From Chthoniobacteraceae bacterium (GTDB taxonomy: Bacteria; Verrucomicrobiota; Verrucomicrobiia; Chthoniobacterales; Chthoniobacteraceae), in assembly GCA_031409655.1 (NCBI GenBank), contig JANNXQ010000041.1, forward strand, positions 1 to 17,324: a stretch of 17,324 nt of DNA. Direction: 5' to 3'. Made by a program: the position numbers and the translations under genes. This document shows, piece after piece, positions 145 through 14,459 of this stretch. A model generated the notes under the pieces. That model did no database searches. It saw only the letters and a list, made by a program, of their open reading frames with translations, and was not told the origin of the DNA. Each line of letters opens with the position of its first letter. Position 1 is the stretch's first letter.

Positions 145-1314
145 CTACCGTCCCGGCGCCAGCTCGAAGAGATGACCCTTCAGATACTCAGTCTCCGGGA
201 TCGTCGGGATGATCGGGTGATCCAGCCCCTGGCGATAGACCGCGAGCTGCCGCAGCGTCTTCTTCGCATCCACCGTCGCGTCATTGATCACCTCCATGAA
301 AGCCTCCGCACTCACATGATAGCTGCAGCAGTAAGTTGCCAGCAGCCCGTCGGTATTCAGGAGTTTCAGCGCCCGCAGGTGGATCTCCTTATACCCGCGC
401 ATCGCCTCATTCACCTTCCCCTTGGTCTTCGTGAAAGAAGGAGGATCCAGCACGATCAGATCATAGCGCTGCTGCTGCCGATCCAGATCATTCAGCACAT
501 CGAAGACATTCGCCGCCACCGCCTCGACCGCGAGCTGGTTCCGCGCGGCGTTACGTTTGATGAGATCCACACAGTCCACGCTGATCTCCAGCGCCGTCAC
601 CTGCGCCGCCCCGGCCCGCGCACACGCCAGCGCAAAGGCCCCTTGATTCGCAAAGCAATCCAGCACCCGCCGTCCCTTCGCCTGCGCCGCGATCGCCGTG
701 TAGTTCGGGAGTTGATCCAGGTAAAATCCCGTCTTCTGCCCGCGCAGCAGATCCACCTCAAATTCCACCCCCGCGACCGTGATCGGGAAAGGCGCCGGCG
801 CGTCGCCATGCACCACGCCCGTGCGCAGTTCCATGCCCTCCGCCTTGCGGATCGGCGCGTCATTGCGCTCCACGATGCTCTGCGGTGAAAAGGCCGCCAC
901 GAGCGCCTGCACGATCAACTCCCGACGCTGATCCATGGCCATCGTCAGCGTTTGCAGCACCAGATGATCCCCGTAGCGATCCACGATCACCCCCGGCAGC
1001 CCATCGCTCTCACTCCAGACCATCCGGCACAGGCGCAGATCCAGCCCGCGCCGCTCCCGATACTTCACCGCCTGCGCGATCCGGCGCGTGAAAAAATCCA
1101 GATCCAGATCCTGCCGCTGCCGCGAGATCCGCCGCGCGATGATCTGCGACTGGCTATTGTAGATCGCCGTCCCCAGCAGGTGATCGCGCCCATCTTTCAG
1201 CGAGACCACATCCCCATCCTTTGGCTCGCCAAAAGCCTTCAAAATCTCCGTCGCATACACCCAGTCATGCCCATGGAGGATGCGTGAACGAGGTTTGATG
1301 ACGAGGCCGGCCAT
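145..1314 (-). CDS. rlmI: Class I SAM-dependent rRNA methyltransferase, RlmI/RlmK family
   Basis: PUA-like N-terminus (GHDWVY), SESDGLPGVIVDRY, GQKTGFYLDQ, VLDCF, DLIVLDPPSF, C-terminal ETEYLK; start placed at ATG 1314 (MAGLVIKP). Confidence 0.85.
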   Translation of the reverse strand: MAGLVIKPRSRILHGHDWVYATEILKAFGEPKDGDVVSLKDGRDHLLGTAIYNSQSQIIARRISRQRQDLDLDFFTRRIAQAVKYRERRGLDLRLCRMVWSESDGLPGVIVDRYGDHLVLQTLTMAMDQRRELIVQALVAAFSPQSIVERNDAPIRKAEGMELRTGVVHGDAPAPFPITVAGVEFEVDLLRGQKTGFYLDQLPNYTAIAAQAKGRRVLDCFANQGAFALACARAGAAQVTALEISVDCVDLIKRNAARNQLAVEAVAANVFDVLNDLDRQQQRYDLIVLDPPSFTKTKGKVNEAMRGYKEIHLRALKLLNTDGLLATYCCSYHVSAEAFMEVINDATVDAKKTLRQLAVYRQGLDHPIIPTIPETEYLKGHLFELAPGR

Positions 1315-1377
1315 GGTGCGAGGGACGCGGAGGGTAGGGGAGCGAGGCGGAAAGTCAACCGGCGCACTCCAGCCCGT

Positions 1378-1534
1378 GTGGCTCAATTTGAAAATCCGGA
1401 CCGAGACTTTCTCAAACGCAAAGACGCAGAGATGCCGAGGACGCAGAGGTTCTGCCCGGCGCCGCCTCTGCGTCCTCCGCGTCTCCGCGCCTCTGCGTTT
1501 TAAAAATGAGCGGAGAATTTTGAAACTGAGCCAC
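1378..1534. mobile_element. MITE-like element with terminal inverted repeats and internal long palindrome
   Basis: GTGGCTCAATTTGAAAAT (1378-1395) vs ATTTTGAAACTGAGCCAC (1517-1534), 16/18 inverted; inner arms 1414-1449 and 1465-1500 are 31/36 inverted and built of ~9-bp ACGCAGAGG units; CTCCAGCCCG direct repeat at 1367-1376 and 1540-1549. Confidence 0.6.
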
Positions 1535-1582
1535 TACCGCTCCAGCCCGCTCAGCCGGATCTGCTCGTCGTCGCCGCTTGCG

Positions 1583-1891
1583 TCAGCCGCTTCGTCCGCC
1601 GAGTCTTCGGCGGATGATTTCGGGGTCTTGGCGGAGGTCCATGACGCCAGAGACGATGATGCGACGTCCCTCGACCGTGTAGAAGATGCCGCAGGGAAAT
1701 CCGTGAACCAGGAGCCGCCGGTAAGACTCATGAAACACTGGCGCGATCTCCGGGAAAGTGCGGAGCTGCCCGAAAGCCACGTCCAAGTGGCGCATGAAAA
1801 CCTCGCCCCGCCCCACCTGAAACGCCTCGTAAAACTCGAACGCCGTCTGGATGTCGGCATCGGCGGAGAAAAGGAAGACCAGCTCACTCAC
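1583..1891 (-). CDS. Type II toxin, RelE/ParE family
   Basis: ~102 aa from GTG 1891: ADADIQTAFEFYE...FPEIAP...YRRLLVHGFPCGIFY...VMDLRQDP; overlaps the upstream antitoxin by 8 nt. Confidence 0.85.
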   Translation of the reverse strand: MSELVFLFSADADIQTAFEFYEAFQVGRGEVFMRHLDVAFGQLRTFPEIAPVFHESYRRLLVHGFPCGIFYTVEGRRIIVSGVMDLRQDPEIIRRRLGGRSG

Positions 1892-2117
1892 TGCTGAGAG
1901 TCCTGCCGAGGATGCGCTGCTGAATGGCCTCCCAAGTGGTGACCTGGCTGGGGTCTCGGCGGTAAGCCTCCATGCGGCGATCAAGCTCGGCAATCTGTTC
2001 GCGGGAAACCGGAACCTCGGTTGGATGGGCCGCCAGATCGTCCCAAAGCTCGCTGACCAGGAGAAGCTTTTGGGCCGGTGTGAGCCGATTCACGTCGGGA
2101 ATGGTTTCGAGGATCAT
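1884..2117 (-). CDS. Addiction module antitoxin (TIGR02574-like)
   Basis: 77 aa: LTPAQKLLLVSELWDDL...ELDRRMEAYRRDP...TWEAI, the family pattern; directly upstream of the toxin. Confidence 0.85.
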   Translation of the reverse strand: MILETIPDVNRLTPAQKLLLVSELWDDLAAHPTEVPVSREQIAELDRRMEAYRRDPSQVTTWEAIQQRILGRTLSSE

Positions 2118-2123
2118 CCCCGG

Positions 2124-2152
2124 AAAATACCCTCTGCCGATTGGGGGAACAA
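2124..2152 (-). promoter_or_regulatory. Putative sigma70 promoter of the TA cassette, probably leaderless
   Basis: Minus strand TTGTTC-N17-TATTTT, 6 nt before ATG 2117; TA cassettes usually carry their own promoter. Confidence 0.4.
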
Positions 2153-2167
2153 GCTCAGAAGCGCCGA

Positions 2168-2420
2168 GTAGAGTAGGCGAGAAGCGATCGCGGGGGCAAG
2201 CTCTGCGCTGGCCCTGCCGGGTTTGCTCCCGAGCCCTCATCAAACCGTGCAGGCGGCTTTCCCGCACACGGCTTTCCGGGAAAAGGGTCGGTGCGTGCAT
2301 CCGTGAAAGCCGAGCGTTTCTGCACGGATGCACGGACCGACCCCTCGACTGCACCTCCGATTCACCCGGGCTTGTTCAACAAGGGTTGCTTGCCGGCTTC
2401 GCGGCAAAGCAACCTTCCGG
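2168..2420 (-). ncRNA. ORF-less group II intron-derived element 1 at a cassette junction, domain V and VI intact
   Basis: DV AAGCCGTGT-GCGG-GAAAG-CCGC-CT-GCACGGTTT (2274-2242) with AGC triad and 2-nt bulge; DVI ends CCT-A-CTCTAC with bulged A at -7; bounded by GGCGAAC (2427-2421) and TCGGC (2167-2163). Confidence 0.8.
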
Positions 2421-2433
2421 GTTCGCCGTTTGT

Positions 2434-3213
2434 TCACTTTTTGAGTGGCTTTTGGAGGACGTAATAGTGCCCTGTCTTGAATGTCCCGCCTGGTTGCGGC
2501 GCGTATGTGCGGACCTTGATAGAGCCATCGGGTTCAGGTTCAAATCGGATTTGAACGTCCTTTGTTAGCGGGGCTAGTGTAAGTAGGGGATTGGACTTGC
2601 GAATGTAAGCTTCGGCCTCAATAAAGTCGTTGGGCCAGCGGCCTTGTTCCGCGAAGAAACGACGCATACCATGTGCAAGAACATATTTTCGGGCGGCGTG
2701 TGCAACAGGAGCGGGCTGATCCAAGAGGAGTTGTAGAACGTCGGAATACAGCGTGCCTTCGGTGTCAATTTTAGACGCGGTGACAAGGGCAGCGGTTTTC
2801 ATGGGCTCGTCGCCGTTCTTGAGTGTCCAAGCAACTGTCGGTAATCCAAGAGCGCCACACTGCTCCAAACCTGTTAGAGCAATGGACCGACCTTTGGCAG
2901 CGGTTGTGTCACGCGCTAACGAGTCGAAGGTTTTGGCTGCTTGTGTGGGACCGACGATCTTGGGTAGAGCCAGAGCTGCCTCGAACCGTACGTTGAAGTC
3001 AGCGTCGCGAAGTAGCTTTTCGAGTGTAGGCGCTTCGGATTTTGCGGTGGGTCCGAGGGTTTCAAGTTGTTTGATTGCGCCTAGTCGCGTTTGGGGATCG
3101 TCGGAGGCGAGTTGCGCACGGTAGGTTGCAGAGCCGCTTGCCTGACCGTTCAGTGGTAATTGCGGCAGGAAGCTAGCGAACGCGAATACGAAGGTGATGT
3201 GCTGGAGATTCAA
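2434..3213 (-). CDS. Secreted HEAT-repeat protein (cassette 4)
   Basis: Signal-peptide-like N-terminus; HEAT-like units LASDDPQTRLGAIKQLETLG and LLRDADFNVRFEAALAL; TTG start uncertain. Confidence 0.65.
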   Translation of the reverse strand: MNLQHITFVFAFASFLPQLPLNGQASGSATYRAQLASDDPQTRLGAIKQLETLGPTAKSEAPTLEKLLRDADFNVRFEAALALPKIVGPTQAAKTFDSLARDTTAAKGRSIALTGLEQCGALGLPTVAWTLKNGDEPMKTAALVTASKIDTEGTLYSDVLQLLLDQPAPVAHAARKYVLAHGMRRFFAEQGRWPNDFIEAEAYIRKSNPLLTLAPLTKDVQIRFEPEPDGSIKVRTYAPQPGGTFKTGHYYVLQKPLKK

Positions 3214-3269
3214 TTGCGTAGGTTCTTGGGTGGGGCTTTCGGTGCGGAGCTAGACGTTGCTGACGGCGA

Positions 3270-3760
3270 GTAGAGTAGGCGAGAAGCGATCGCGGGGGCA
3301 AGCTCTTCGCTGGCGCTGCCGTTTTCGCTTCCGACCCCTCATCAAACCGTGCAGGCGGTTTTCCCGCCGAGGCGGCGGCGGCGGGGAATAGGGCGGACGG
3401 TGGGCGGGCGAGAGGGCTTTCCGAGTTCCATTCATGCGCTTGGCCTTTGGCTTTCATGCAGGGGTCCACGCCGCACTGCGCGGCGGGCTCCAGAGTCCGT
3501 ATTGAAAGCATACGAAGGGACGGGTTGAGGCCAGGCCCTTCCTCCTGAATCACCTCTTTCGGGGCCACCTCGGGGCCAGTCCATGGCCAGTTGGCACCCG
3601 GAGCAACTCTGAGAAGGCCCTTTCGCAGAAAGTGGAATCCGCAAAGGAGCCGTCGCGACGGTCGGGCGGCTAAAACTCCGGGGCGAAAGCGCGCCTCTGC
3701 CTCACCCGGGCTTGTTCAACAAGGGTTGCTTGCCGGCTTCGCGGCAAAGCAACCTTCCGG
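3270..3760 (-). ncRNA. ORF-less group II intron-derived element 2 at a cassette junction, domain V interrupted
   Basis: Last 37 nt identical to element 1 (3270-3306 = 2168-2204); 69-bp identical 5' block (3702-3770 = 2362-2430); 47-nt insert in DV (3368-3414); bounded by GGCGAAC (3767-3761) and TCGCC (3269-3265). Confidence 0.75.
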
Positions 3761-3820
3761 GTTCGCCGTTGGTTCGACTGGAGAATGCCCCCGTAGATGC
3801 GCCCCAAATAGCAAATAGCG

Positions 3821-4294
3821 TCATAGGGCCGGAGAAGCTGAATCTGTCGGGGTGTATTTGCCGTCCACGAGGAACACGCCGGGGTAAAGTGAAGCAACCA
3901 CGATCGAAACGAGGCGCTCGTCGGAAATGTGCATGATCGAATGAGCAAGCTCCTCAAGAATACAGGCAACCTTGAAAGGGTAGGCCAGCGGTTGCATCTT
4001 GTTGCAGTCCACAAAGACCCACGGCTCAATTGTCACATTGATCGTTTCCGGGCCGGATGGAGAATAGGTAAGCTGCCCGCCAGGAAGGTTGAGGCGGAAG
4101 GGTGCCGTGGCGAACGTAACGTGTGTTTTGCGGACGAAACGCACGGATGGGCCGATGCAGGAGACTGCCTCCCAGAATGCTTTCGCGATCGGAAGCATGG
4201 CAGGCGGAAGCGGATTGCAGCTCACGTCGAACATGTGCCGATACTGCTCTGGAATCCCTGCTTCAATATCGCTGGAAGTAACCGGGGAGATCAT
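3821..4294 (-). CDS. Hypothetical protein (cassette 3) with EELAH zincin-like motif
   Basis: 157-aa ORF filling the interval between GTTCGCC and GGCGAAC; ACILEELAHSIMH resembles HExxH. Confidence 0.6.
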   Translation of the reverse strand: MISPVTSSDIEAGIPEQYRHMFDVSCNPLPPAMLPIAKAFWEAVSCIGPSVRFVRKTHVTFATAPFRLNLPGGQLTYSPSGPETINVTIEPWVFVDCNKMQPLAYPFKVACILEELAHSIMHISDERLVSIVVASLYPGVFLVDGKYTPTDSASPAL

Positions 4295-4305
4295 AGGCGC
4301 GCATC

Positions 4306-4341
4306 GGCGAACGACTCAAGCCTGCAGCGCCATTGTTAGGC
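4306..4341 (-). other. 36-bp internally deleted attC-like site
   Basis: Minus strand GCCTAAC-AATGG-CGCTGCAG-GCTTGAGTC-GTTCGCC; the upstream gene's TAA stop lies inside the R'' box, as is typical of cassettes. Confidence 0.7.
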
Positions 4342-5103
4342 GTTTGGTTTGAGGACATTTAGAACGGCGTTTTCGGTTGCTTCGAGTTCGGTGAAAGTAA
4401 GTTGGTCGCTCTCATCCAGCGAGTGCAACCATAGATTGTAGGTTGGCGCTGTAGAACCATCAGAGGACTTGTCATCGGATCGGGATTCGCTGCTGTCCGA
4501 CCAGCCGAACCAGTCGCCGCAACGGTCATCATTCTTGGATTCGCGGTAGCCGTCCTCGTAGCGCCGGTCGTCGGCTTGGTGGGCGTCCGAATATCCGTCT
4601 TTGGAGTCGTCTTTGGAGTCGCGGTAGCCCTCGTCGTGGCCCCGGTCGTAATCGCGGTGACCGTTTGAATATCCTTTGCTGTAGTCGTCCTTGTCGCCTC
4701 CTCCGCCACGCGTCCAAAACATCGTTGTGCCGTCACGAAGCGTCATAAGAGCGATTCCGTGGCGCTGGGCATACGTAATCGCGCCCCTCTGGAACCCGAC
4801 GGTCGCGACAAGAATGCCTTTGTGAGCGCCCACTGCACGAACTCGGTCATGGAGAACTTGGACGACATCTCGCTTGATGGCGTGGTGATGTCGCTTGCAT
4901 TCGACGAGAACGAGAAACTCGACTGCCAACTCTTGGAAGCGGAGAGTGACGTCGATCTCGAACTCTCCGCTGTCTCCAGTCAGCACTTCCTTGTGAGTCG
5001 CGGTAAACTCTCTCAGGCGGGATCCAAGTGCGGAAAAGTAAGAACGCATCTCTCTCTCGAAGTCAGTCGGACTAATGCTGACGGATTTATCCGTGAACTT
5101 CAT
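4336..5103 (-). CDS. Mrr_cat-type PD-(D/E)xK restriction endonuclease with acidic low-complexity segment (cassette 2)
   Basis: SPTDFE...EIDV...LVECKRH...VVQVL...AHKGILVATVGFQRGAITYAQRHGIAL. Confidence 0.8.
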   Translation of the reverse strand: MKFTDKSVSISPTDFEREMRSYFSALGSRLREFTATHKEVLTGDSGEFEIDVTLRFQELAVEFLVLVECKRHHHAIKRDVVQVLHDRVRAVGAHKGILVATVGFQRGAITYAQRHGIALMTLRDGTTMFWTRGGGGDKDDYSKGYSNGHRDYDRGHDEGYRDSKDDSKDGYSDAHQADDRRYEDGYRESKNDDRCGDWFGWSDSSESRSDDKSSDGSTAPTYNLWLHSLDESDQLTFTELEATENAVLNVLKPNA

Positions 5104-5119
5104 GTGTGCGTGCGAAAGC

Positions 5120-5155
5120 GCCTAACGACAAAAGCCTGCAGCGCCATTGGTCGCC
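5120..5155 (-). other. 36-bp internally deleted attC-like site
   Basis: Minus strand GGCGACC-AATGG-CGCTGCAG-GCTTTTGTC-GTTAGGC; inner 22 nt are 20/22 identical to the 4306-4341 site. Confidence 0.7.
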
Positions 5156-5184
5156 GTTTTGCTCGGATTGCCTTCTCTGCGCAT

Positions 5185-6642
5185 TCATTGGTGATCGTCG
5201 ATAAAATCCGAAGGATCAATAATGCCATCCTTCTGCATCAGAACGAACGCCGCCTGAACTTCGGCCACATTAAGACCGGAGACTGGACCGTAGTATCCGT
5301 TCCCTGTGTCATTTGGCCACAAACTGTTTGGGTTTGTAACTGTATTCCGCATCTCCAGATGAAGATGGGGAGGAAAGGAGGACACGGCACCGATCACTCC
5401 GATGACATTGCCCTTGGCTACGGGGCTTCCTTCTTGGTAGGTGAATGCTGCCTCGCTTCCGATCGTTCCAGGGGAGTTTGGGTTTCCGGCGATGGTATCT
5501 GGGGCGACGTGGACGTAGAGGCTGTCAATGGAATCACCATTCTGTAGCCAATGGCGCACAAGGACGACATACCCAGAGGCCGCTGGTCCGGAAGCTGAAG
5601 CCGGTCTGATGTCAATTAAATGTCCGTTTGCGACAGCCTTGACCGGCTCCCCAACATCGTCCGTGTCGCTTCCGCTATTCCAATCCTCTCCGGCGTGGAG
5701 CCCTCCGAAGAGGGAATAATAGCTTCCGACATCCTGAATATTATACCATCCAGCGCCCGGCGTGGTTGCACCTCGATCGGGCCTTGCCACGGGCGATGCT
5801 GGAAATAGCGTGTTTCGTTCAGGGGCAATTTGCTCGAGCACGCTTCCGGAACCGATTGGATAAGCAAAGTCTGTCGCAATGGAAACACCCGGGGGCAAGT
5901 AGGTTGTTCGGTAAAACTTCTGGGGTTGCGTCGGCGTATCAATGACTTCTGTTCCCGGCGTATCGGAGTTGAACTGTATGAGGGGAAACCATTGGCGGAG
6001 GTTGCTCGACCAAGAGGCAAGGCACATAGCACCGGGCTCAGCGGTCGAGAAAATGAACGTGCATGATCCTTCGGGAGTGAGCTGAAAGCTTTTGAGGGCA
6101 CTGCGGCCATCTGCGGGATCATGTTGGTGGGTCGGTAGCGAACGAAAGCGCGGCGGTGTGCCGGTGTACTCGACGACGTATCCGAAACTAGAAGTGCGTC
6201 CGGAGGAATTGTCGTTCCAGCGTCCGACAATGCCATCCAACTCAAGGAAATTTTCGTTGGCGCCCAAGTTGTTCGGTTCGTTCGCCGACCAGTTTGAATA
6301 GGTGAAAGGCTCGCTGGTCACCCAGCGCCATCCTCCGGCGGGCTCAGGCGAGCCGGTGGGTTGATAACCGCCGATCCAGAAATACGGGTCGGAACGGTTG
6401 GCTACAATTACGTCGTTCTCGGCTGGTGAGGTAATCGTCGCAAGATATCCACCGCGGGCTACCGCGGCGTCGCGGGCTGCAGCCCAAGAAATCGAGGGGG
6501 CAGATACGAACTCATACGTATGTCCGTTGCCCCCGCTGCTGGGTAACCAGACAAACGTTGTTTGGGCGACGCAGCTCCCTGACGCGATCAAAAACGCGGT
6601 GAGAACCATGTATTGCTGACAGGGGTTGCGTTTGGAGCGCAT
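5185..6642 (-). CDS. Secreted C-type lectin domain plus M23 metallopeptidase (cassette 1)
   Basis: Signal peptide; CTLD (GNGHTY, WAAARDAA, GGYLATITS, WIGG, EPNN, WND); M23 motifs HAGED, PVKAVANG, YVH, HLHLEMR. Confidence 0.75.
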   Translation of the reverse strand: MRSKRNPCQQYMVLTAFLIASGSCVAQTTFVWLPSSGGNGHTYEFVSAPSISWAAARDAAVARGGYLATITSPAENDVIVANRSDPYFWIGGYQPTGSPEPAGGWRWVTSEPFTYSNWSANEPNNLGANENFLELDGIVGRWNDNSSGRTSSFGYVVEYTGTPPRFRSLPTHQHDPADGRSALKSFQLTPEGSCTFIFSTAEPGAMCLASWSSNLRQWFPLIQFNSDTPGTEVIDTPTQPQKFYRTTYLPPGVSIATDFAYPIGSGSVLEQIAPERNTLFPASPVARPDRGATTPGAGWYNIQDVGSYYSLFGGLHAGEDWNSGSDTDDVGEPVKAVANGHLIDIRPASASGPAASGYVVLVRHWLQNGDSIDSLYVHVAPDTIAGNPNSPGTIGSEAAFTYQEGSPVAKGNVIGVIGAVSSFPPHLHLEMRNTVTNPNSLWPNDTGNGYYGPVSGLNVAEVQAAFVLMQKDGIIDPSDFIDDHQ

Positions 6643-6660
6643 TTGGAGAGAGCGTTAGTC

Positions 6661-6754
6661 GCCGAACTTGTTAATATACGACTGGGAAAAAGGGTCCAGT
6701 CGCATATTGGGGGGTGCGCCAGTCGTATATTGGAGGGGCCTCCAGTCGCATATT
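6661..6754 (-). other. attI-like site: GTT core plus four phased 13-bp boxes
   Basis: GTTCGGC (6667-6661), 5-bp spacer, then CCAGTCGYATATT boxes at 6673 (inverted), 6696, 6719 and 6742. Confidence 0.65.
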
Positions 6755-6772
6755 TCAATTGCGTAGTGGAAC

Positions 6773-6796
6773 AGGGGTCAGGCAACAAAGCTTGAC
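6773..6796 (+). repeat. Left inverted repeat of the Y1 transposase unit
   Basis: AGGGGTCAGGCAACAAAGCTTGAC is 21/24 inverse to 7861-7884. Confidence 0.75.
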
Positions 6797-6820
6797 AGCT
6801 CAGTCGTGAGGCGGTGAATT
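6792..6820 (+). promoter_or_regulatory. Possible transposase promoter overlapping the left inverted repeat
   Basis: Perfect TTGACA (6792-6797), 17 nt, weak TGAATT, then ATG 6 nt later. Confidence 0.35.
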
Positions 6821-6826
6821 GCGCCC

Positions 6827-7879
6827 ATGCCCCGCAGCCTGCGCATCGAATATCCCGGCGCCTATTACCATGTGATGGCTCGTGGCAACCGGCGCGAGGC
6901 GATCTTTCGAGATCAGGAGGACCGCCGCTTTTTCCTCAAGACCCTCGGCGAAGCGTGCGGGATGACCGGGTGGCGGGTTCATGCCTGGGTGCTGATGGGC
7001 AATCACTACCACCTGATGCTGGAGACGCCGGAGGCGAACCTGGTGGCCGGGATGGGGTGGCTGCAAAACACCTACACGCGCCGCTTTAACACCCGGCACC
7101 GGCTGTGGGGCCGGTTGTTTGGGGATCGCTACAAGGCGGTGCTGGCCGAGGGTGGGAGCGATTACTACTACGAGACGCTGCTGGATTACATCCATCTGAA
7201 CCCGGTGCGCGCGGGCCTGGTGCGGGCGCGCGCGGGCAGGAGTGTGCTGGATTATCCGTGGTGCAGCGTGGGCGGCGGCCATGCGCTGCCGCCTTCAAAA
7301 CGCCCCGCGTGGCTGGCGACGGAGCGGGCGCTGGCGGCGTTTGGGTGCGCGGACACGGCGGCGGGGCGGCGGCGGTTCGTGGAGCGGCTGGATCGCCAGG
7401 CGGTTGAGGAGGAAATGAAGCGCTGCGGGGTGGCGCCGATGCCCGCGGAGGTGGACGCGCGATGCAGCCATTTGCGACGCGGCTGGTTTTGGGGCAGCCA
7501 GGCGTTTGCCGAGGCGGCATTGAAGGTGGCAAAGGGAGTGCTCGAACGGCCAAGGCATCGGACGACTCGGTCGAGCCTCGAAAAGCGCGCGCATGATGAG
7601 GCGCGAGCGGAGGCGCTGCTGGCTTCCGGGCTGGCGGCGGCGGGGTTGACGCGGAATGAAGTGGCGCGGCTGCCGGGGTCGGACGCGAGGAAGGTGGCGA
7701 TCGCGCGGCTGATCTGGGAAGGAACGACGATGTCGCAGGGCTGGGTGGCGGAGCGTTTGCGGATGGGCAGCGCGGCGAATGTGAGCCAGCAATTGCGCCG
7801 GGCCCGGGATGGGGCCTCACAGACGAAGTTGCCCGCGGAACTCAAGCGTCTGATCAATCAGTCAAGAGTTGTTGCCTGA
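6827..7879 (+). CDS. HUH/Y1 transposase (IS200/IS605 TnpA superfamily, RAYT-like) with C-terminal helix-turn-helix-like extension
   Basis: MPR.LRIEYPGAYYHVMARGNRREAIF, HUH motif LMGNHYHL, LFGDRYKA, catalytic YIHLNPVRAGLV, YPW; C-terminal SQGWVAERLRMGSAANVSQ. Confidence 0.9.
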   Translation: MPRSLRIEYPGAYYHVMARGNRREAIFRDQEDRRFFLKTLGEACGMTGWRVHAWVLMGNHYHLMLETPEANLVAGMGWLQNTYTRRFNTRHRLWGRLFGDRYKAVLAEGGSDYYYETLLDYIHLNPVRAGLVRARAGRSVLDYPWCSVGGGHALPPSKRPAWLATERALAAFGCADTAAGRRRFVERLDRQAVEEEMKRCGVAPMPAEVDARCSHLRRGWFWGSQAFAEAALKVAKGVLERPRHRTTRSSLEKRAHDEARAEALLASGLAAAGLTRNEVARLPGSDARKVAIARLIWEGTTMSQGWVAERLRMGSAANVSQQLRRARDGASQTKLPAELKRLINQSRVVA

Positions 7880-7892
7880 CTCCTTTCCTGCC
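7861..7892 (+). repeat. Right inverted repeat of the Y1 transposase unit, containing the stop codon
   Basis: GTCAAGAGTTGTTGCCTGACTCCTTTCCTGCC; TGA stop at 7877-7879 lies inside it. Confidence 0.75.
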
Positions 7893-8196
7893 AAACCGGA
7901 TAGGTATGGATTGCAGTCTGGCGTTTCTGACCTTGGGGAAGACGAGGAGCTGGCTGGGTAATCGAGGGTTCGGGTGCCGACCGTTTCACCCATTTCCATC
8001 CGGGTCATCTGGGTGACATAGGGCCTTCGGCGTGCGTTTGGCATGGCGCGCGGAGCGACGCCATCCACCGACGCATGGGTTTCAACAGGCGGCTAGAGGC
8101 CGCTGAGGCAGACTTCAACGCCAAACGGTTTCGGACATTGACTGGTCTCGTTTGCAGTCTGGCGTTGAGCGTTTGAAGCGTGCCGATCCGGTTCGG

Positions 8197-8225
8197 AAGA
8201 GTTGTTGCCTGACCCCTTTCCTGCC
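8197..8225 (+). repeat. Second direct copy of the right repeat
   Basis: AAGAGTTGTTGCCTGACCCCTTTCCTGCC, 28/29 identical to 7864-7892. Confidence 0.75.
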
Positions 8226-8244: not shown

Positions 8245-9972
8245 TTACTTGCCCATCTTCAGAAACTCCTCACGAGTCAGGAACCCACCCTTGTCCTGGT
8301 CCCATTTGGTGAAGCGTTCGGCGGCATCGGCGGCATTGGACTCGTGGGTGGTGTAATACTCACGGCTCAGCTTGCCGGTCTTCCCCACGTCGAGTTTCTC
8401 GAAGCGTGCGTTCCGGTCGTCGTTGCTGGCCGGCGCGGCGGGAGCGGCGGGTTTGCTTTTCTTGCCCTTCCCTTGGGACTTGGCCCCGCCAGCGGGAGTG
8501 GAGGAACCCACGGGCGGCAGGTTTTTCGCCAGCGTTTCGAGCAGCGCCTGGTGCTCTGGTTTGTCGGCCAGGCTGACTGTTTCGGTGGGGTCGTTTTGTT
8601 CGTCGTAGAGTTCGGTGGCAACGATCTTGGCGCCGTCGCGCTCGCGCCAGAAGGTGGCCCGCCAGCGGGGGTCGCGGATGCTGTATCCCATGACCGGACC
8701 TCCGTCGGACCCGCGTGGGTATTGGCTGATCGCGACTTTCATTGGGGGAGCCGAGGGGTTCTCGATGAAAGGCTTCAAGCTCATGCCGGTGAGTCCCGTC
8801 GGAGCGGGCAGTCCGCAAAGATCCGCCAGGGTGGGATAGACATCGACGAACTCCACGGGGGCCGTGCATTTCTGTCCGGCGGTCTTTGACTTTGGCACGC
8901 TGATGAGCAGTGGCGCGCGCGCCGCGATCTCGAAGTTAGTGTGTTTGTGCCAGAGGCCGTGCTCGCCGAGTTGCCAGCCGTGATCGCCCCAGAGCACGAT
9001 GATCGTGTTGTCGGCGAGACCTTCTTTGTCGAGCGCATCGAGCAGGCGACCGATCTGCGCATCGGTGTAACTGATGCAGGCATAGTAGCCGTGGCGCAGC
9101 GTCTTGGCGAAGTCCGCAGGGATGGGATTCTCCTTCGGCACTCCTGGGTAGGCATGGAGTTCGCCGTTCGTGTGTCCGGCGAATTCGGGGCTGCCGACCG
9201 GGAGCTTGTCCGTCGTAGGCACGGGGATCTTATTCGGATCGTAGAGGTCCCAATATTTTTTCGGCGCGACGAAGGGCAGGTGCGGCTTCAAAAAGCCGAC
9301 GGCGAGGAAGAAGGGCTCGCTCTTTGACTTCAGCGCGGCGAGTCGCTGCACCGCCTCGGCGGCCGTCGCGCCATCGGGAAGCTGATCGTCTGGCTTCGGG
9401 CTGACTTCAAAGGCGGGGCCTTTCTTGGCTCCTTTGCCGTTCTTTCGCTCGGGGCCGTCTTTTAGCGGGGCGCTGAATTCCTCGGTGTTCACGTCGTGCT
9501 TCGTGACGATCTGCTTCGTCCAGTCCACCGGATCGGTATCCACCGCGCGGCCCTTCGGATACCAGTGCGGCTCATTCCAGGAGCGACCATCTTCGAAGCC
9601 CGAATGGTAAATCTTGCTCAACGCCGCGGTATGGTAGCCATTCGCCTTGAAGTGCTGCGGCAGGGTGACGCAATCCGGCTGCGCGACCCGAAAGTGCGTC
9701 ACCAAATCCCAGACCTTCGTCACGTCGGGACGCAGGCCCGTCATGATCGCCGTGCGCGATGGGCTGCAGACCGCCTGCGCGACGTAGGCCTTGTTAAAAA
9801 CGAGGCCGCGCGCCGCGATCCGGTCGATGTTTGGGGTCTTGACGATCTTATTGCCGTAGCAGCCGAGTTCGGGCCGAAGATCATCGACGGCGATAAAGAG
9901 GACGTTGGGTTTTTGCGCGGCAAGGGCGCTCGCCACGAAAAGGACGGAGCACAGGGTCAGGATGGTTTTCAT
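8245..9972 (-). CDS. Secreted Cys-type sulfatase (iduronate-2-sulfatase-like) with C-terminal EF-hand-like pair
   Basis: Signal peptide, KPNVLFIAVDDLRP, CSPSR, KIYH, KPHLPF, WGDHGW.LGEH..W.KH; tail FEKLDVGKTGKLSREY and FTKWDQDKGGFLTREEF. Confidence 0.9.
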   Translation of the reverse strand: MKTILTLCSVLFVASALAAQKPNVLFIAVDDLRPELGCYGNKIVKTPNIDRIAARGLVFNKAYVAQAVCSPSRTAIMTGLRPDVTKVWDLVTHFRVAQPDCVTLPQHFKANGYHTAALSKIYHSGFEDGRSWNEPHWYPKGRAVDTDPVDWTKQIVTKHDVNTEEFSAPLKDGPERKNGKGAKKGPAFEVSPKPDDQLPDGATAAEAVQRLAALKSKSEPFFLAVGFLKPHLPFVAPKKYWDLYDPNKIPVPTTDKLPVGSPEFAGHTNGELHAYPGVPKENPIPADFAKTLRHGYYACISYTDAQIGRLLDALDKEGLADNTIIVLWGDHGWQLGEHGLWHKHTNFEIAARAPLLISVPKSKTAGQKCTAPVEFVDVYPTLADLCGLPAPTGLTGMSLKPFIENPSAPPMKVAISQYPRGSDGGPVMGYSIRDPRWRATFWRERDGAKIVATELYDEQNDPTETVSLADKPEHQALLETLAKNLPPVGSSTPAGGAKSQGKGKKSKPAAPAAPASNDDRNARFEKLDVGKTGKLSREYYTTHESNAADAAERFTKWDQDKGGFLTREEFLKMGK

Positions 9973-12851: not shown

Positions 12852-14459
12852 ATGATCGAAACCGCTCCGAATTACGCCGCTGTCAAACAGGGGCTCATCC
12901 CCATCACGCCGCAGGAAAAGCTGAAACTGGAGAAGGATGGGCTGGATGTGATCCACGATATCTATCGCTACGCAAAGACGGGGTTTGCTTCGATCGACGA
13001 CGGGGATTTTGACCGGATGAAGTGGTATGGGGTGTATCGGCAGAAGCCGAAGGATAGTGGCTACTTTATGATGCGGCTGAGGCTGCCGGGGGGGATCGTC
13101 TCGCCGGTGCAGGCGGCGAAGCTGAGCGAGATCGCGGATCGTTTCGCGCATGGCTTTTGCGATATCACGACGCGGATGACGGTGCAGTATCACTGGCTGC
13201 GGATCGAAGATATCCCGACCATTTTCTCGGAGCTGGCGAGCGTTGGGATCGGGACGAGCGGAGCGTGCGGGGATATCGCCCGCAATGTGGTGGGCTGCCC
13301 GGTGGCGGGGATCAATCCGGATGAAATCCTGGACGCGACGCCGGAGCTCATGGAGGTGAATGCGGCACTGGAGAACAACCGCGAGTTTTCCAATCTGCCG
13401 CGGAAGTACAAGATCAGCGTCTCGGGCTGCTGCATCCATTGCGCGCAGCCGGACATCAATTGTGTGGGGGTCTTCGGGCTGCGCCGCGGGAGTGAAGTGG
13501 GCTACGGGATCAAAGTGGGCGGCGGGCTGAGTTCGGCGCCGAAGCTTTCGGTGCTGCTACCGGTCTTCCTAAAGCCAGCGCAGGTCTGGCCGGTGATCGA
13601 GGCGGTGAGCACGATCTTCCGCGATCACGGCTACCGGCTGAAGCGGAACAATGCGCGGCTGAAATTTCTGGCGCATGATTGGGGCGCGGAAAAGCTGCGG
13701 AGCGAGATCGAGGCGCTGTTGGGATACAAGCTCGATGACCACAGTGACTTTGTCTTTCCGAAGGATTCGGAGACGGATCATTTGGGGGTTCACCAGCAGA
13801 AGCAGGCGGGCCTTTCGTGGGTGGGCGTGTGTTTCCCCGGGGGCCGGCTGCGCAATAGCGCGCTCGGCAAGCTGGGCGAGATGGCGGCGAAGTACTGCGC
13901 GCCGGGGCAGGGGGAGATCCGCCTCACGACCAAGCAAAACCTCCTGATCGTGAATGTCGCGGATGCGAATGTCGCGGCGCTGAAGGCGGCGCTGGATGCG
14001 GAGGGATTTAGCTACGCGCCGTCGAATTTCCGGCAGGGCTGTGTGGCCTGCACGGGCATTGAGTTTTGCAATCTCGCGGTGGCGGAGACGAAGAATCGGA
14101 TGATCGAACTCGTGGAGCAACTCGAAGCGCAGAGCGGCTGGTACCGGAGTAAGATCCGCATCCACTTTAGCGGCTGCCCGAGCTCGTGCGGTCAGCATCA
14201 GATCGCGGACATCGGTTTCCGCGGTGCGCGCACAAAGATCAACGGGGAGATGGTGGACGCTTACGACTGCTTTGTCGGCGGTCGGTTGGGGCAGAGCCGT
14301 CGTTTCAATGAGCTGCTCAAGGGCAAGATCATCGCGAAGGACGTGCATCTCTTTATCGACAAGCTGCTCAAGATCTACGACGCGAAGAAGCAGGGCGAGG
14401 AGACGTTTGCCGACTTCACGGATCGCGTGAAGAAGGACGAAATCCTGGCGGCGCTGTAG
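12852..14459 (+). CDS. Ferredoxin-dependent nitrite/sulfite reductase (siroheme, 4Fe-4S)
   Basis: FMMRLRLPGG, LPRKYKI, ligand motifs ACTGIEFC and SGCPSSCG; substrate (nitrite or sulfite) not determinable here. Confidence 0.9.
   Translation: MIETAPNYAAVKQGLIPITPQEKLKLEKDGLDVIHDIYRYAKTGFASIDDGDFDRMKWYGVYRQKPKDSGYFMMRLRLPGGIVSPVQAAKLSEIADRFAHGFCDITTRMTVQYHWLRIEDIPTIFSELASVGIGTSGACGDIARNVVGCPVAGINPDEILDATPELMEVNAALENNREFSNLPRKYKISVSGCCIHCAQPDINCVGVFGLRRGSEVGYGIKVGGGLSSAPKLSVLLPVFLKPAQVWPVIEAVSTIFRDHGYRLKRNNARLKFLAHDWGAEKLRSEIEALLGYKLDDHSDFVFPKDSETDHLGVHQQKQAGLSWVGVCFPGGRLRNSALGKLGEMAAKYCAPGQGEIRLTTKQNLLIVNVADANVAALKAALDAEGFSYAPSNFRQGCVACTGIEFCNLAVAETKNRMIELVEQLEAQSGWYRSKIRIHFSGCPSSCGQHQIADIGFRGARTKINGEMVDAYDCFVGGRLGQSRRFNELLKGKIIAKDVHLFIDKLLKIYDAKKQGEETFADFTDRVKKDEILAAL

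Follow-up and report, generated by a model that had tools for sequence, protein, structure and literature searches.

An attI site and cassette array without an adjoining integrase gene, bordered by a TIRYT-type Y1 element, in a Chthoniobacteraceae bacterium

Introduction

Integrons acquire gene cassettes through recombination of attC with attI sites, a reaction catalyzed by the integrase IntI (PMC4889954). The stretch of DNA analyzed here (hereafter the window) is the entire 17,324-nt contig C41 (JANNXQ010000041.1) of genome G000, from a Chthoniobacteraceae bacterium (GCA_031409655.1). It bears an attI site followed on the minus strand, between 6642 and 1583, by four to five cassettes, and no integrase gene; the position of intI is occupied by a gene for a Y1 transposase of the HUH type. 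An initial annotation had offered two accounts of this arrangement, namely an HUH-associated gene-capture platform or a frozen array whose intI was displaced by the Y1 element.

By its sequence, the locus appears to resemble a group of clustered attC sites with no integrase (CALIN) that kept its attI (PMC4889954; PMC9668308; PMC12444791). As in the CALINs surveyed by Cury et al. 2016 (PMC4889954), the window holds a cassette array with attC-derived junctions and no adjoining intI, the genome encodes an IntI at another place, and a toxin-antitoxin pair and insertion elements lie within the array. It differs in keeping a recognizable attI, which that survey could not search for, and its four attC-derived junctions, none of which scores as a whole attC, would probably escape an attC model. 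With a C-terminal profile, that survey detected intI pseudogenes close to just 5% of CALINs, whereas the stubs of intI at sibling sites described below are N-terminal. Compared with a complete integron, the window has an attI but neither an adjoining intI nor a canonical folded attC. In the chromosomal integrons of Xanthomonas (PMC12444791), intI is likewise often truncated or deleted while attI and arrays persist, and transposases occur inside arrays; those integrons occupy mostly one ancestral locus (ilvD), whereas the attI type described here adjoins many unrelated genes. Group IIB introns in integrons and CALINs (PMC7923331) share with the window 5'-truncated remnants directly behind attC in cassette orientation, although the window remnants are known as group II only and no whole group II intron reverse transcriptase (RT) gene was found in G000. 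Passengers of these kinds have been reported in arrays before, both as introns (PMC7923331) and as IS1111-attC elements (PMC11187229).

The Y1 gene has its closest described counterparts in the TIRtrons and their TIRYT transposases (Di Nocera et al. 2013, PMC3733652), in TnpA-Y1 subclass 2.1 (Quentin et al. 2018, PMC6006769) and in group 1 of the REP-associated tyrosine transposases (RAYTs), the most insertion sequence-like RAYT group (Bertels et al. 2017, PMC5581495). Common to all of these and to the window element are an HUH-Y1 core with NHYH and YIHLNP motifs, a long C-terminal extension, terminal inverted repeats (TIRs) fitting GGGGWSAS, and several copies per genome. The word integron is absent from the accessible portions of PMC3733652 and PMC5581495. 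In a literature search that mostly lacked coverage of subscription journals and did not include supplements, we found neither a report linking TIRYT to integrons nor a description of multi-copy solo attI sites in Verrucomicrobia.

We conclude that the window very probably contains a real attI with four to five cassettes and no intI, and that the Y1 gene belongs to an inverted-repeat element of its own, likely a passenger inserted into an integron that was probably already decaying. In support of this conclusion, the attI is tied to one clade of IntI, homology to relatives that bear an intI stub ends where the element begins, and the element family has conserved ends but diverse surroundings.

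Results

The attI site lies on the minus strand at 6661..6754 and, by motif and alignment with relatives, consists of a core, GTCGTATA-N7-GTTCGGC (6661-6682), and three upstream direct-repeat boxes. The GTT of the core is at 6667-6665, with 6667/6666 as the expected crossover point. The site contains a 13-bp box four times, one copy being inverted (6673-6685) and the others lying at 6696, 6719 and 6742. The crossover is of the GTTRRRY type and is accompanied by putative integrase boxes, and the core pattern was absent from all of 300 shuffled windows (0/300). We take 6661-6754 to be a true attI because the same core precedes intI at 8 of 58 integrase loci of the family, and a tree groups the 7 attI-bearing IntI of sufficient length in one clade (SH-aLRT 96; a quick version of the tree, from which the 180-aa row L166 was left out). 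At one mismatch the core was absent from the other 50 integrase rows, four of which had fewer than 200 bases upstream, while L178, the sister row of this clade, has the core at two mismatches. The same core and repeat box recur in an alignment of intI-linked, solo and window sites. The attI-like site proposed in the initial annotation is therefore upheld.

We also examined what occupies the intI position. Neither TIGR02249 nor a profile specific for the IntI clade matched in the window, in keeping with the earlier statement that it lacks a tyrosine recombinase, and integrase searches of G000 gave matches on other contigs only. The whole-genome search proposed in the initial annotation returned one IntI above the TIGR02249 cut-off, encoded on C132, which is 44% identical to an enzyme of the attI-linked clade and falls in another clade; the clade profile revealed no copy of a cognate IntI in the G000 assembly. 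An attI is reported to be recognized only by its cognate integrase (PMC2095811). C275 and C66 each have at an end a 45-residue C-terminus that shares 98% identity with the C132 IntI; both are probably further, collapsed copies of that integrase.

The closest copies of the window attI are three metagenomic loci (L282, L286 and L288), which share 80-81% identity with it over 111-126 bp. All three match the window up to about 6768-6770, where the window sequence becomes the end of the Y1 element. Two of them, L286 and L282, run on into a truncated intI 108 nt from the core (iE 6e-24 and 3e-5, respectively), and L288 has the same intI start before its contig ends. Judged by the spacing in relatives, the interval left in the window (6755..6767, minus strand) may be a remnant of the cassette promoter region, in which a likely -10 box is kept and a likely -35 box and the intI start are lost at the element end; both lost features are still present at the sibling sites of G000 on C124 and C271. 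A consensus scan of this region of the window found no promoter, the likely -35 box of relatives being replaced there by the element end.

The element itself (6768..7884, plus strand) was delimited by repeat analysis and is of the TIRtron type, with the Y1 gene set within 24-bp TIRs that begin GGGGTCAG (6773-6796 and 7861-7884). The TIRs are 88% complementary, contain the GGGGWSAS motif and fit the terminal-repeat consensus of TIRtrons (PMC3733652). The Y1 gene (6827..7879, plus strand; 350 aa) matches PF01797 (E 5e-11) and is divergent from the array, its ATG lying 73 bp past the last attI box, much as the initial annotation had described (a RAYT-like gene about 70 bp beyond the boxes). The protein carries NHYH at 59-62 and YIHLNP at 121-126, and H60-Y61-H62 and Y121 are invariant in 26 aligned sequences. 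In the table of PMC6006769 this pair of motifs denotes subclass 2.1, equivalent to group 1 of Bertels, while NHYH by itself is also listed for subclasses 2.3 and 2.8. We assign the gene to TIRYT (subclass 2.1, RAYT group 1) by its motifs and ends, as distinct from the published clustering or a tree. With 350 aa the protein exceeds the subclass 2.1 median of 238, and its C-terminal domain, predicted to be helical (pLDDT about 90), is matched by a Pfam helix-turn-helix family in 0 of 26 sequences. Structure prediction (pLDDT 85) gave a model that matches those of TnpA-REP and of IS200/IS605 transposases, the best match being E. coli TnpA-REP (PDB 4ER8, E 3e-7). Unlike in REPtrons, however, the protein scores below the NCBIfam cut-off for REP-associated transposases (NF047646, 60 bits against 80), and the gene is flanked by TIRs in place of REP hairpins with a GTAG-type foot.

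Copies or fragments of TIRYT occur on 7 other G000 contigs, one left end being 96-97% identical, and homologues are present in 48 of 151 genomes of the family. The homologue loci examined were 40, chosen for the most part among the highest-ranked of the 95 listed matches and extended by as much as 5 kb on either side. The TIR motif was found on the left in 32 of 40 loci and on the right in 25 of 36, so that the ends of this element family are conserved while its neighbors vary. Copy number and ends together suggest that TIRYT elements are mobile. Tandem duplication of TIR ends is common among the homologues. In the window, a repeated element of ~305 bp (7892..8196, no strand assigned; repeat analysis) with a nested REP-like repeat (8021-8098) is bracketed by two stretches of 29 bp that duplicate the right end of the TIRtron (7864-7892 and 8197-8225). 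The dispersed hairpin family that includes 8021-8098 has ~62 loci in G000.

If Y1 and attI acted together, their pairing might be expected to recur. The attI loci comprised 70 genomic sites (56 exact matches and 14 that differ at one or two positions; at least 1 kb of upstream sequence was available for 63) and 8 metagenomic ones, or 78 in all; a ninth locus from the metagenome scan (L280) was an unrelated tandem repeat and was dropped before counting. A TIRYT profile run over these 78 loci gave one match, the window. Conversely, the attI motif was found at 0 of 40 TIRYT homologue loci and attC at 2 of 40, one within 5 kb and the other more than 9 kb away in a deliberately extended locus, and no TIRYT gene lies beside the four further attI sites of the same type in G000. 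Relatives instead carry intI or a stub of it at this position. These are the results that the initial annotation had said would speak against a capture platform, and its headline proposal accordingly fails.

Several observations nevertheless weigh against the passenger reading. TIR-type elements lie near integron marks, counted strictly, at 4 of 20 G000 loci outside C41 compared to a background of 0.7%. A 60-bp TIR element is located 31 bp from the core of one sibling attI in G000, and in G005 TIRYT occurs just behind an R'' box (L244) and, as a fragment, at the far end of an intI-headed array (L279, outside the 40 loci). The element end GGGGTCA equals the sequence found at the -35/intI start of relatives, shifted by 7 bp. 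Nor did any strain turn up in which these cassettes accompany an intact intI. The comparison of the rlmI-sulfatase interval (the two flanking genes) proposed in the initial annotation did not show the two genes side by side in the 5 relatives checked, and an empty site was hence not seen. Finally, G000 is a draft assembly (6.85 Mb, 306 contigs, 5.3% contamination).

The first four of these points would also fit a true preference of TIRYT-type elements for integron platforms, through GGGGTCA at the promoter/intI start or through folded att sites, with capture still performed by IntI. We regard such targeted parasitism as improbable. Although the trend favors TIR elements, their proximity to integron marks was not significantly above that of unrelated repeat families in G000 (4/61 and 1/24; Fisher p 0.10 and 0.16), none of the 77 other attI loci had a TIRYT gene, attC was absent within 5 kb from 39 of the 40 homologue loci, and GGG(G)TCA occurred in the corresponding region at just 7 of 69 attI loci. 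The TIR elements near integron marks fit mobile DNA piling up in dispensable regions.

It is very unlikely that the Y1 protein has taken over from IntI at this attI, acquiring or rearranging cassettes by cleavage of attC folded as single strands. Its position and divergent orientation do mimic intI, it retains intact HUH and Tyr motifs, folded single-stranded DNA is the substrate of both enzyme classes (PMC8266576), and the two 36-bp attC forms described below are confined to this locus. However, the attI keeps the boxes of an IntI clade, the pairing is seen at 1 of 78 attI and 0 of 40 homologue loci, the Y1 protein has terminal repeats of its own, the 36-bp forms do not outfold shuffled sequences, and the G+C content at third codon positions (GC3) of the Y1 gene (0.81) is host-like, unlike that of the cassettes. 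Least credible is an assembly chimera joined at a repeated TIR end, for while the assembly is fragmented and contaminated, with TIRYT fragments and intI ends at several contig ends, the element is whole, has matched inverted repeats and is bordered on each side by unique sequence within the 17-kb contig.

We next consider the junctions of the array, all four of which are non-canonical, as the initial annotation had stated. A covariance model built from 16 attC sites of the family Chthoniobacteraceae gave no convincing match in the window (the highest-scoring junction reached 12.3 bits, E 0.16); it identified canonical sites on G000 contigs C201 and C132. By comparison with the consensus, junction 1 (5120..5155, minus strand) is a 36-bp attC with its center deleted and a degenerate R'' box, and junction 2 (4306..4341, minus strand) is a 36-bp attC with the same central deletion. 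These junctions belong to two different cassettes, and both ends of each match the family attC consensus. The 36-bp forms fold no better than shuffled sequences (z +0.8 and +0.9), and a search of 150 related genomes found none (0/150). A shortened attC of 42 bp occurs in L176.

Junction 3 begins with an R'' box followed by an atypical attC-like hairpin, here called type B (3714-3767), and a tail (3560..3767, minus strand; delimited by family conservation). Its second part (3270..3504, minus strand) is, by sequence analysis, the 3' remnant of a group II intron, which retains the end of the RT frame, an interrupted domain V and domain VI and ends at an R'-like TCGCCG. Junction 4 starts with a second type-B hairpin (2351..2427, minus strand; hairpin at 2374-2427), 94% identical to that of junction 3 by repeat comparison, and continues into a 60-bp miniature element with TIRYT-type ends (2284..2344, no strand assigned; repeat comparison) and group II intron domains V-VI in cassette orientation (2168..2276, minus strand; RF00029, 43.4 bits). 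The intron 3' remnants at these two junctions, like the 24-bp TIRs and the IntI on another contig, are additions to the initial account.

Type-B hairpins are present in 10 of 151 family genomes and start at a cassette R'' box in nearly all of 19 aligned copies. The two in the window fold better than shuffles (z -3.4 and -4.5), and some compensatory changes are seen. No transposase-like frame, as expected of an IS1111/IS110 end, was seen among the listed frames that follow 18 copies when judged by eye, no library scan having been made, and Rfam gave no 5'-domain match that would indicate the 5' end of a group II intron. In one copy on C226 the sequence shifts just after GTT, as an IntI crossover would give.

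The attI type is not limited to the window. Its core pattern was found at 56 sites in 28 of 151 family genomes, compared to 4 in a control with the pattern read backwards; a class-level search found it in 4 of 301 genomes, and the exact pattern, too strict for this purpose, gave 5 loci across a species-level genome collection, all in one genome. The motif is concentrated in the family Chthoniobacteraceae. A single genome may carry as many as six copies; most copies lack intI, and a short remnant of the 5' end of intI is frequent. Of 70 genomic loci, 7 have a whole intI or a large part of one, and N-terminal stubs of ~25-95 residues stand at the intI position behind 8 solo sites; a same-strand control for such stubs gave no match. 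Among 55 other sites scanned, the nearest upstream genes are many unrelated housekeeping genes. The attC covariance model matches 28 of 65 attI loci outside G000, 7 of which had helped build it. One intI-linked site is accompanied by 4 solo sites in G415 and by 5 in G418.

Multi-copy solo modules are seen in G415 (L134-L138), G418 (L140-L145), G006 (L028-L032) and G000 (C124, C271, C69 and C6). In each of these genomes one cognate intI or none was found, stub lengths vary, and near-identical attI copies head different first cassettes. A second attI-like sequence, common to another family genome, precedes single cassettes (G000 C29:62758 and C236:11621; L205 and L208). Many first cassettes (in L144, L154, L160, L166, L170, L179, L034 and G000 C6) end exactly at GCCTAA(C), beyond which a small set of recurrent foreign sequences is found, a pattern suggestive of elements with the R'' box as their target or recombination site.

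The cassettes and flanking genes were assigned by domain and library scans except where stated. Cassette 1 (5185..6642) encodes a signal-peptide-like start with C-type lectin and M23 peptidase domains, cassette 2 (4336..5103) an Mrr-type restriction endonuclease domain, cassette 3 (3821..4294) a 157-aa protein of an unnamed family and cassette 4 (2434..3213) a HEAT-repeat protein, all on the minus strand. PADLOC matches to the Mrr cassette were all weak, and within this cassette a 78-bp tandem duplication (4535-4690) yields an acidic low-complexity tail. An antitoxin of the PF09720/TIGR02574 family (1884..2117) and a ParE/RelE-like toxin identified by comparison (1583..1891), both on the minus strand, follow. 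Cassettes 1-4 have a GC3 of 0.54-0.65. The cassette status of the toxin-antitoxin unit is less sure because its GC3 is host-like (0.71-0.76) and no attC was found at its end; of the five unrelated co-oriented cassettes originally listed, four stand firmly.

As initially noted, metabolic genes flank both sides, namely an rlmI-like rRNA methyltransferase (145..1314, minus strand) and a sulfatase (8245..9972, minus strand) whose stop codon lies 28 bp past the outer TIR copy. GC3 is 0.78-0.81 for rlmI, the sulfatase and the Y1 gene. An ancestral rlmI-sulfatase adjacency was considered and not found in relatives (G002, G005, G001 and G003 differ). Upstream of rlmI, G002 and G005 have a degP-like gene, and in three genomes of the genus the region holds differing mobile DNA (window 1315-1583; L249 in G001, which includes a TIRYT fragment; L250 in G003). 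The dispersed hairpin family that includes 1408-1506 has ~25 loci in G000. Elsewhere in the window, sequence inspection identified an ordinary nitrite/sulfite reductase-like open reading frame (12852-14459), with lower GC just upstream.

Discussion

The most likely account of the locus is ordinary integron decay, with no new capture system involved. A cognate IntI would have built the array by recombination of attC with attI, after which intI would have eroded from its 3' side, as at sibling sites. Since sibling sites without a whole intI have no TIRYT, intI probably decayed before the Y1 element arrived, an order that we infer from sequence comparison. The second account in the initial annotation, a frozen array with Y1 at the intI position, was thus essentially right, except that displacement by Y1 is doubtful given that siblings and closest copies have neither a whole intI nor Y1. 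The TIRtron may have inserted in the promoter spacer, with loss of the remaining intI stub by deletion; an adjacent deletion is suggested by the interval of just 28 bp between the outer repeat and the stop codon of the sulfatase gene. The 305-bp element would have inserted later at the TIRtron right end. Internal deletion and group II intron insertion would have damaged the attC sites. With its attC sites damaged, its promoter cut and the search for a cognate IntI negative, the array is likely frozen; the exception would be a cognate gene that the assembly lacks.

Arrays that lack an integrase and contain insertion elements are common, and in that respect the locus matters little. An HUH enzyme in the place of IntI would, if true, be a new recombination system; the comparison across loci gives a negative answer. 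More unusual is how widely attI modules are scattered over loci in this family. As a tentative proposal, which we hold possible but do not favor, this attI lineage seeds many chromosomal sites with attI-promoter modules and sheds intI from most of these, which persist as satellite capture sites served in trans by a single cognate IntI in a "distributed integron", and the Y1 element is a passenger that cut one satellite off its promoter. Loot et al. (10.1101/2022.09.11.507474) report that attI1 inserts into genomes at no significant rate, and the spread of attI modules is therefore not explained by that route. The family-wide attI motif is searchable, and offers a direct way to test both the origin of integrase-less arrays and the use of remote attI sites in trans.

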